64,000 nucleotides of DNA. Source: Eledone cirrhosa (Eukaryota). The stretch spans positions 11,160,001 to 11,224,000 of the forward strand of contig OZ024748.1 of the NCBI GenBank assembly GCA_964016885.1, given 5' to 3'. Positions 16,865 to 17,395 of this stretch are shown here, in pieces (position 1 is the stretch's first letter; the number at the start of each line of letters is the position of its first letter). A program made the translations under genes and the position numbers. The notes below the pieces were generated by a model. That model ran no database searches. It was not told the DNA's origin and worked only from the letters and a program-made list of their open reading frames with translations.

Positions 16865-17395
16865 ATATTTATTTTTTTTATATCCAATTGAGTTCTTCAC
16901 GCATGATTAAAATTATTGAAAGAAGTAATTTTATTCTTTTATGTTTTGCGATGACCTCCCCTTCCCGCTTGGTGACGGTGTGAGATTTCTCTTTGTGAGA
17001 CTGCTGGAATTTCAAATTTGGCGGTCACTCTGGCACGGATGGGGACCATCGCTGAATATTAATGTCGGTAAGGTTTTTTTATATCGATATTGTCGGGCAT
17101 CCACTGATGATTTATAAGTGCCCACCTACATATATTCCTATGGACGATGTGTAGGCTTCTACATAACCTGGACATTATTTTCCCAATTTGTAGAAAACTT
17201 ATAATGAAACGATCGTTTGGAAAGAGAGATGTATTTAATTATGTCTCATATAAAATAATACAACTGGCTATCCGCAAAATACGTATAGTTAGTACCCCAA
17301 ACGTATAATTGGGATTATACTAAGGTATATCCTAATGTTTGTTGAGTGAGACGGAAGCCGGTCGGAGTATTGCTTAAAGCTTTCTCTGTTAATAT
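16865..17395 (+). mobile_element. Diverged copy of the 679-bp HHR element
   Basis: Shares ATCCAATTGnGTTCTT, the extended HHR and CCTAATGTTTGTTGAGTGAG; ends in (TA)n. Confidence 0.75.
17095..17221 (+). ncRNA. Extended type I hammerhead ribozyme (best-formed copy)
   Basis: GGGCA-TCCA-CTGATGA-TTTATAAG-TGCCC...CTTATAAT-GAAA-CGATCG-TT-TGGA; predicted cleavage after 17217. Confidence 0.78.

Follow-up and report, generated by a model that had tools for sequence, protein, structure and literature searches.

The stretch of the Eledone cirrhosa genome analysed here (GenBank assembly GCA_964016885.1, contig OZ024748.1, positions 11,160,001 to 11,224,000 of the forward strand, 64,000 nucleotides (nt); called the window below and numbered from its first letter) contains at 17095..17221 (+) a predicted type I hammerhead ribozyme whose stem II is expanded into a branched domain. 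We think it likely that this hammerhead is functional and serves as the processing module of a non-autonomous, non-coding retroelement, a non-LTR (long terminal repeat) retrozyme, acting by the mechanism proposed below. The novelty lies in the structure of an otherwise known ribozyme, carried by an element of a known kind. A specialist will not be surprised that an insert in stem II is tolerated. The surprise is that a conserved and covarying two-hairpin domain is present in thousands of copies, that long forms of the motif outnumber short ones, and that it was missed by Rfam.

The whole hammerhead spans 127 nt on the forward strand and scores 156.9 bits with model R1, which was built from the relatives of this copy, a member of subfamily B. 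The 5' strand of stem I (17100..17103) forms 4 base pairs (bp) with 17218-17221. It is followed by the core CUGAUGA (17104..17110), residues C3 to A9, in which N7 is free. U10.1 and the 5' strand of stem II occupy 17111..17119; stem II has 8 bp with 17197-17204, and U10.1 faces U11.1 at 17205. In place of a small loop, stem II ends in a 77-nt three-way junction with two hairpins, IIa (17125..17155) and IIb (17157..17195), the latter composed of a 7-bp stem and an inner 3-bp stem. The stretch 17206..17217 comprises GAAA at 17206-17209, the palindromic stem III stretch ACGAUCGU at 17209-17216 and the GUU triplet ending at 17217, which places the predicted cut between 17217 and 17218. A GGGC at 17095..17098, 5' of stem I, is complementary to the GCCC at 17120-17123 and is a candidate for either a pseudoknot or an off-state hairpin. 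As a dimer, the stem III palindrome forms a 12-bp duplex of -14.4 kcal/mol, compared with 0 for the monomer.

Conservation was assessed on 173 family loci, which gave 141 complete motifs and, by clustering, 32 groups. One representative was kept of each of the 12 groups with at least two members; the 20 single-copy groups, which carry decay mutations, were dropped. The residues that define a type I hammerhead (C3 U4 G5 A6 N7 G8 A9, G12 A13 A14, the pair A15.1-U16.1 and H17) are invariant in 12 of 12 representatives, with N7 being U or A there and C or G in other copies, and H17 being U or C within the family. Without guidance, RNAalifold recovers stems I to III as well as both inserted hairpins, and together with the pair counts it yields three helices around the core with stem I open. 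In the full structure, 96.6% of 468 cells are paired and 12 of 39 pairs have changed on both sides. None of 500 shuffles matches the observed pairing and covariation, and slid controls contain zero or one such pair. The both-side changes are distributed over stem I (1/4), stem II (3/8), hairpin IIa (5/10, the most variable part), the two stems of hairpin IIb (1/7 and 1/3, with all cells paired) and stem III (1/3). These data support selection on the secondary structure of a large type I hammerhead variant, as judged from sequence comparison. Because stem II points away from the core, the core probably tolerates the insert, which is probably retained to control folding or to bind protein.

The original prediction had started from three diverged copies and had proposed such a structurally selected variant, asking for covariation in a larger alignment; the 12 representatives bear it out. 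The 95-nt spacing between CTGA(T/A)GA and GAAA that it gave is the one measured here (17104-17110 to 17206), and covariation in stem I holds, the outer pair being U-A in seven and C-G in five representatives. Other details required revision. Stem III is self-complementary and covaries, with pair 15.3-16.3 being G-C in eight and A-U in four representatives, yet one of the stretches proposed as a palindrome, ACGAUUCGU, is not a perfect one. The U.U at 10.1-11.1 is present, but stem II is 8 bp long with an extra pair that covaries (A-U in six, U-A in four, unpaired in two of 12), the U.U has already been published for other hammerheads, and one subfamily has A-U instead. TTCTACA/TGTAGAA, described as invariant, is so in the three window copies, but it covaries in other subfamilies, as does stem II. 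The subfamily with A-U at 10.1-11.1, subfamily D (L071, L148, L158, L182 and L189), also has a GUC triplet and a longer stem III, and is our best candidate for cleavage as a monomer.

The original prediction also held that standard descriptors, which limit the length of loop II, would miss this ribozyme. Indeed, a search of 16950-17390 (441 nt) against Rfam 15 returned no match at E<=10, though the catalytic core letters are those of the Rfam hammerheads. The whole window gave 324 matches at E<=5, and no hammerhead was found among the 150 matches listed, which are microsatellite-driven matches to microRNAs, a transfer RNA (tRNA) and the like. At the same time, a 29-nt pattern of the 5' half has 2,763 exact matches in the 3.0-Gb genome and none in a reversed control.

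An oversized stem II is common in this genome beyond the family of the window, a point that the original prediction had overlooked. We searched for CTGANGA-gap-GAAACRATYGT, a pattern that covers neither gap lengths of 39, 40 or 72 nt nor a stem III with any other loop. Gaps of 8-38 nt gave 8,598 matches (control 28), gaps of 41-71 nt gave 3,650 (control 27), and gaps of 73-103 nt gave 6,410 (control 17) when the first letter was required not to be T, a restriction that excludes the bulk of the window's family. With stem III specified identically, long motifs (3,650 + 6,410) thus outnumber short ones (8,598); a few of the matches are short motifs with an upstream CTGANGA. By eye, the first 30 long matches fall into at least six families. 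The loci L204-L245 represent at least six unrelated families with inserts of 51-103 nt, which often occur as inverted pairs typical of insertions of Penelope-like elements (PLEs). Stem I has at least three pairs in 26 of the first 30 long matches, and H17 is A, C or U in all 30. As long inserts are found in several unrelated families, stem II expansion occurred in several lineages. Most inserts in the other families fold as one long bulged hairpin and not as a junction; among these oversized hammerheads, it is the family of the window that is clearly branched and has a candidate pseudoknot.

The hammerhead is part of a larger structured repeat unit of about 680-990 nt. The original prediction had placed the motif in a PLE or retrozyme context, which our analysis supports, but it did not recognize the unit, which lacks an open reading frame (ORF). 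Three unit lengths occur, 679, 720 and 993 nt, each unit with one hammerhead, and all form head-to-tail arrays (the 720-nt unit in locus L018, the 993-nt unit in L049). Read as dimers, the three units have no stop-free frame longer than 75 amino acids and thus no coding capacity. Folded as circles, two of the three units are 62-64% paired, with z values of -5.4 and -7.6 relative to 20 shuffles. In L049, the 993-nt unit originated by internal duplication of about 270 nt, with 75% identity between the two parts.

Model R1 finds five intact hammerheads in the window, at 3128-3269, 3807-3948 and 4486-4627 (all -), 17090-17230 (+) and 31610-31751 (+). Each scores above 150 bits, and the next match in the window has 18 bits. 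The three copies named in the original prediction are all located where it placed them, 3137-3264 being the last member of an array. This array at 2962..4890 (-) contains about 2.8 head-to-tail units of 679 nt with three hammerheads and has its 3' end at (TA)n. The copy at 16864..17396 (+), which carries the hammerhead described above, is a complete insertion of the 720-nt unit, truncated at its 5' end and flanked on both sides by (TA)n tracts, and that at 31578..31932 (+) is a 5'-truncated copy of the 993-nt unit, likewise between (TA)n tracts. In addition, the window holds three tail-only fragments: one at 23404..23579 (-), which starts about 15-20 nt 3' of the predicted cut and lies inside (TA)n, a short one at 5465..5579 (-), and another at 4889-4957. 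The tail itself (17257..17395, +) is a second structured domain, with 9 of 41 predicted pairs changed on both sides among 15 copies and a closing helix that ends at the 3' end of the element. Its invariant 20-mer (17331-17350) occurs 6,937 times in the genome and not once in the control. Between stem I and the tail, directly 3' of stem I, the sequence predicts a hairpin at 17226..17247 (+), at which truncated 5' ends accumulate; its arms covary by eye, and RNAalifold did not recover it.

For the ends of the copies, we read the loci of the first 30 listed places of the 20-mer and 60 of the next 70 with 4.6 kb of upstream sequence, all from one chromosome. By eye, 56 of the 60 copies stop at the same point in a TA tract, two continue into the next unit and two are interrupted. 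A second unit lies upstream in five of the 60, and 5' ends are variable. In four sequencing runs, the contigs contain the unit and one back-joint at the unit boundary, a signature in which RNA cannot be distinguished from tandem DNA. A metagenome scan with the family pattern gave no match.

In sequence, the unit has the features by which Cervera and de la Pena (2020, PMC7229834) define a non-LTR retrozyme. It shares with the elements described there and by Li, Clavereau and Pollet (2026) the non-coding tandem repeats, one type I hammerhead per unit, low GC content, a weak palindromic stem III and co-occurrence with PLEs; the axolotl hammerhead HHR_Amex2 (PMC7229834) also has the U.U at the base of helix II. 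The differences are equally clear. Retrozyme hammerheads in these published accounts are canonical or minimal, whereas that of the window's family has 127 nt and a branched stem II. Monomers are given as 170-400 nt in the 2020 study and 51-972 bp in the 2026 survey, compared with 679-993 nt for the units here. Most copies here are 5'-truncated with a fixed 3' end, and the strict (TA)n target points to one PLE clade. According to Cervera et al. (2014, PMC4209133), helix II has 4 bp in canonical metazoan hammerheads and 7-8 bp in minimal PLE forms, and the longest loop II in the table of Craig et al. (2021, PMC8557442) is 35 nt, in a spike-moss PLE. In full-text literature we found no natural hammerhead from an animal whose stem II is both branched and this large, with the limit that the supplements of Cervera 2014/2020, Perreault 2011 and Li 2026 may hold examples of long stem II. 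From plants, the double hammerhead of the satellite RNA satRPV, on which Song and co-workers are said to have reported in 1999, reportedly has an extended stem II, an attenuating pseudoknot and cleavage as a double hammerhead. Its extension is said to be much smaller than the one here.

The retrozyme is most likely moved by PLEs of the Hydra clade. A protein search with the ORF piece beside one copy led to a very abundant family, with 39,706 first-look candidates, of which 150 were scored. Its protein combines a reverse transcriptase (RT), a CxCx5C linker, a C-terminal GIY-YIG domain and CxxC, CxH and RWK motifs; by these sequence features the family belongs to the Hydra clade as described by Craig et al. 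(2021, PMC8557442), whose members insert into (TA)n. The hammerheads of this clade (File S2 of that paper) share with ours type I topology, short stems I and III, often the U.U at 10.1-11.1, a position near the 3' end and the (TA)n target. In those listed there, stem II measures 3-7 bp and its loop 3-9 nt, against 77 nt with two hairpins and no ORF here. The abundant family found by the protein search (L114-L143, for example L115 and L119) has its 3' end at (TA)n and, in 21 of 30 loci, a hammerhead-like motif whose core halves are 94-96 nt apart and which lies some 900 nt 3' of the ORF piece that was matched. This motif has the variant core CCGAUGA (U4C) and a palindromic stem III, and the (TA)n end follows about 300 nt further on. 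Among the long matches described above, those of L204, L210, L212, L217 and L226 lie behind the end of a Hydra-type ORF on the same strand with no (TA)n between (L226 with a short insertion). The unit of the window fits the pattern of a non-autonomous Hydra partner in its insertion into (TA)n, its fixed 3' end and its 5' truncation. It has no RT/GIY-YIG ORF, whereas the proposed helper families have RT, CxCx5C linker and C-terminal GIY-YIG. Its target site ties the retrozyme to a specific helper clade, which remains a probable one. Model R1 gives other families at most 23 bits, and Pfam yielded nothing useful for three ORF pieces.

Two other clades were considered as helpers. Neptune, the first label for the neighbouring ORFs, was dropped when the Hydra motifs were found. 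Naiads came into question through their (TA)n target, shared by those of octopus (Craig et al. 2021, PMC8557442), and through the label 'HHR_half_core'; the unit has no likeness by eye to the two published Naiad 3' ends, a comparison that does not extend to the Naiads of this genome, which were not searched.

Up to the formation of circles, the mechanism we propose follows from known retrozymes; the later steps are our own proposal. Transcription through an array would give a multimeric RNA, in which two neighbouring hammerheads would pair via the palindromic stem III and cut after GUU, or GUC in some subfamilies. The resulting unit-length RNA would be ligated to a circle, as has been demonstrated with RtcB for the axolotl and mussel retrozymes (Cervera and de la Pena 2020, PMC7229834). 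The RT/GIY-YIG protein of the Hydra clade would then nick (TA)n, bind the structured tail and, primed at the nick, start copying from the tail end, about 180 nt 3' of the cut. Usually the RT would pass the joined site, leaving truncated monomers and multimers, and sometimes it would detach on reaching the cut end. We count in favour of this retrozyme interpretation that published Hydra hammerheads also have the U.U where stem II begins.

The 5' ends of genomic copies were mapped for 90 copies chosen by a tail motif about 113 nt 3' of the cut. Of the 77 copies still at risk, 12 start at +5 to +19 from the predicted cut (binomial P 1.5e-4, for a background of 0.045 per 20 nt). Within the 20 nt before the cut, 1 of 65 starts, and other TA-rich windows show starts in 1/56, 3/80 and 3/51. 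One mis-anchored copy, L082, lies beyond the windows counted. This pile-up fits cleavage, and it fits RT stalling as well.

Several observations weigh against a working retrozyme hammerhead. None of the 77 copies starts at +1, and 65 of them run through the predicted cut; circles closed by ligation, or multimers left uncut, would account for this read-through. The pile-up could be due to RT stalling or microhomology, since none starts at +1, the site is the TA-rich arm of a hairpin, TA flanks blur the ends and most copies read through. Nested folding puts the hammerhead fold 3-11 kcal/mol higher than the minimum, and in 7 of 12 representatives the GGGC/GCCC helix outcompetes stems I and II. 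Independent compensatory events are fewer than 12, since several share one subfamily split. Comparison of the unit by blastn and nhmmer with 29 loci from one of the Hydra families plus 42 loci of others, which represent part of the families of the genome, gave no match (a reversed control gave seven weak ones), so that the PLE partnership rests on target site and layout without sequence similarity to any sampled autonomous family. Finally, only one of nine predicted retrozyme dimers cleaved in vitro in the report of Li et al. (2026, bioRxiv 10.64898/2026.07.22.740005).

The original prediction had proposed a pseudoknot between GGGC and GCCC; the complementarity is there and GGGC is conserved in 11 of 12 representatives, but none of the four pairs (0/4) shows a compensatory change. 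The helix may serve to dock stem I with stem II, or else to keep the monomer inactive. In minimal PLE hammerheads, a tertiary contact between these two stems is dispensable. Pseudoknotted hammerheads (PMC3088659; PMC11300833) share a 4-bp complementarity between the flank of stem I and the bases after stem II. There, mutants established the pairing, and stem II has been replaced or is short, whereas here stem II has 8 bp and the candidate pairing lacks covariation. We tentatively regard an inhibitory alternative fold, an off-switch for monomer or circle, as a realistic possibility, and we rate an activating contact below it because an 8-bp stem II without a linker before GCCC is long for a 4-bp stem I, and seems to us too short of reach for docking in the usual parallel fold. 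GGGC/GCCC would also form first during transcription, and its mean pair probability is at least 0.89 in the seven representatives in which it dominates, although nested folding cannot score a pseudoknot at all. Activation by such pseudoknots depends on stem lengths (Perreault et al. 2011, PMC3088659), yet the same study predicts that about 40% of natural hammerheads use one, with the complement directly downstream of stem II, as GCCC is here. Copies mutated on both sides stay complementary in 8/12 and 2/2 cases, which may weigh against an off-switch, but all are single copies and the changes are mostly transitions. An off-switch would be a candidate answer to how circular retrozymes avoid cutting themselves: they must be blocked somehow, by means that the text of Cervera and de la Pena (2020, PMC7229834) leaves open.

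Going further, the branched insert and the GGGC/GCCC helix together might act as a regulatory domain of natural origin. It would be an allosteric switch, to which the RT of the helper perhaps binds, and would allow cutting in multimeric transcripts and be off in the circle. This is speculative and we consider it doubtful. If true, the oversized stem II domains, gained independently in many Hydra-type families here (more than 10,000 motifs whose core halves are 41-102 nt apart), would represent a class of regulated animal ribozymes that has stayed hidden, and expanded or permuted hammerheads may be present in some PLEs for which none has been reported.

The nature of the element can be read differently as well. 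The unit might be the terminal repeat (pLTR) of an autonomous Hydra-clade element, missed by our sample or extinct, with arrays formed by tandem insertion or unequal crossing over and not by copying of circles; the ribozyme would still be real. The layout of hammerhead, 43-215-nt tail in many of the loci read and (TA)n is that of autonomous families, Li et al. (2026, bioRxiv 10.64898/2026.07.22.740005) derive retrozymes from PLE terminal repeats and trace those of Xenopus to pLTRs (molluscs are not among the taxa sampled, as far as the preprint describes them), and the copies for which we read 4.6 kb of upstream sequence number only 60 out of about 6,900. However, what lies upstream of the unit in long copies is the 3' end of the preceding unit. 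A PLE ORF piece is near 7 of the 60 loci; in the four read fully, (TA)n separates it from the unit, and in the other three it is more than 2 kb away. Three unit lengths, one with an internal duplication, also argue against a pLTR, which we judge unlikely. It is very improbable that the motif has lost all or nearly all catalytic activity and persists because it gives the retroelement RNA structure or a site for protein binding: the stem I of only 4 bp, the stem III of 2 bp, the U.U at 10.1-11.1, the competing GGGC/GCCC helix, the read-through of most insertions and the poor cleavage in vitro of minimal PLE hammerheads (Cervera 2014, PMC4209133) would agree with it, but the catalytic letters are kept exactly, N7 and H17 vary only among allowed residues (H17 U and C here; A, C and U in other families), one subfamily has a longer stem III and a Watson-Crick pair at 10.1-11.1, and read-through is to be expected from a ligated circle.

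The descriptors and models employed in hammerhead surveys assume a short stem II, and counts in animal genomes may therefore miss whole families. The subfamilies described here provide a natural series in which to study how catalysis by a hammerhead is affected by a large peripheral domain.

Some further observations concern PLE 3' ends. Craig et al. (2021, PMC8557442) give the 3' ends of Naiad_Ovul and Naiad_Obim, in which all three hammerhead blocks are seemingly present by eye in permuted order (cut site, GAAA, CUGAUGA); stems I and III would have 5 bp each, and stem II would be weak. Such a motif could explain the label 'HHR_half_core' of a clade said to lack hammerheads. It was not found in the 250 loci examined, the genome not having been searched for it. 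The permuted order resembles the type-SGC permutation that Eckert and colleagues reportedly described in 2023. A TTGAG 5-mer lies about 50-110 nt from the 3' end in unrelated families (L208, L211, L217, L219 and L220; 17342-17346 in the window); it was noticed post hoc and is not significant by nhmmer.

The window contains other repeats and genes. At 16408-16760 (-), beside the copy at 17 kb and separated from it by (TA)n, lies a C-terminal fragment of a non-LTR RT, which looks like an unrelated piece of a long interspersed nuclear element (LINE). Near-identical 466-nt units, direct and inverted, lie in 18615-21283 and include perfect inverted arms of 928 nt. Long perfect hairpins at 33226-33388 and 34017-34192, fragments of fold-back repeats, give below-threshold matches to microRNA models; fold-backs of this kind are frequent in the loci fetched genome-wide. 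A tRNA gene with anticodon UUG by alignment (68.5 bits) is located at 41231-41302 (-), and three long C2H2 zinc-finger ORFs are found at 44998-45801, 47584-48909 and 52398-54170.
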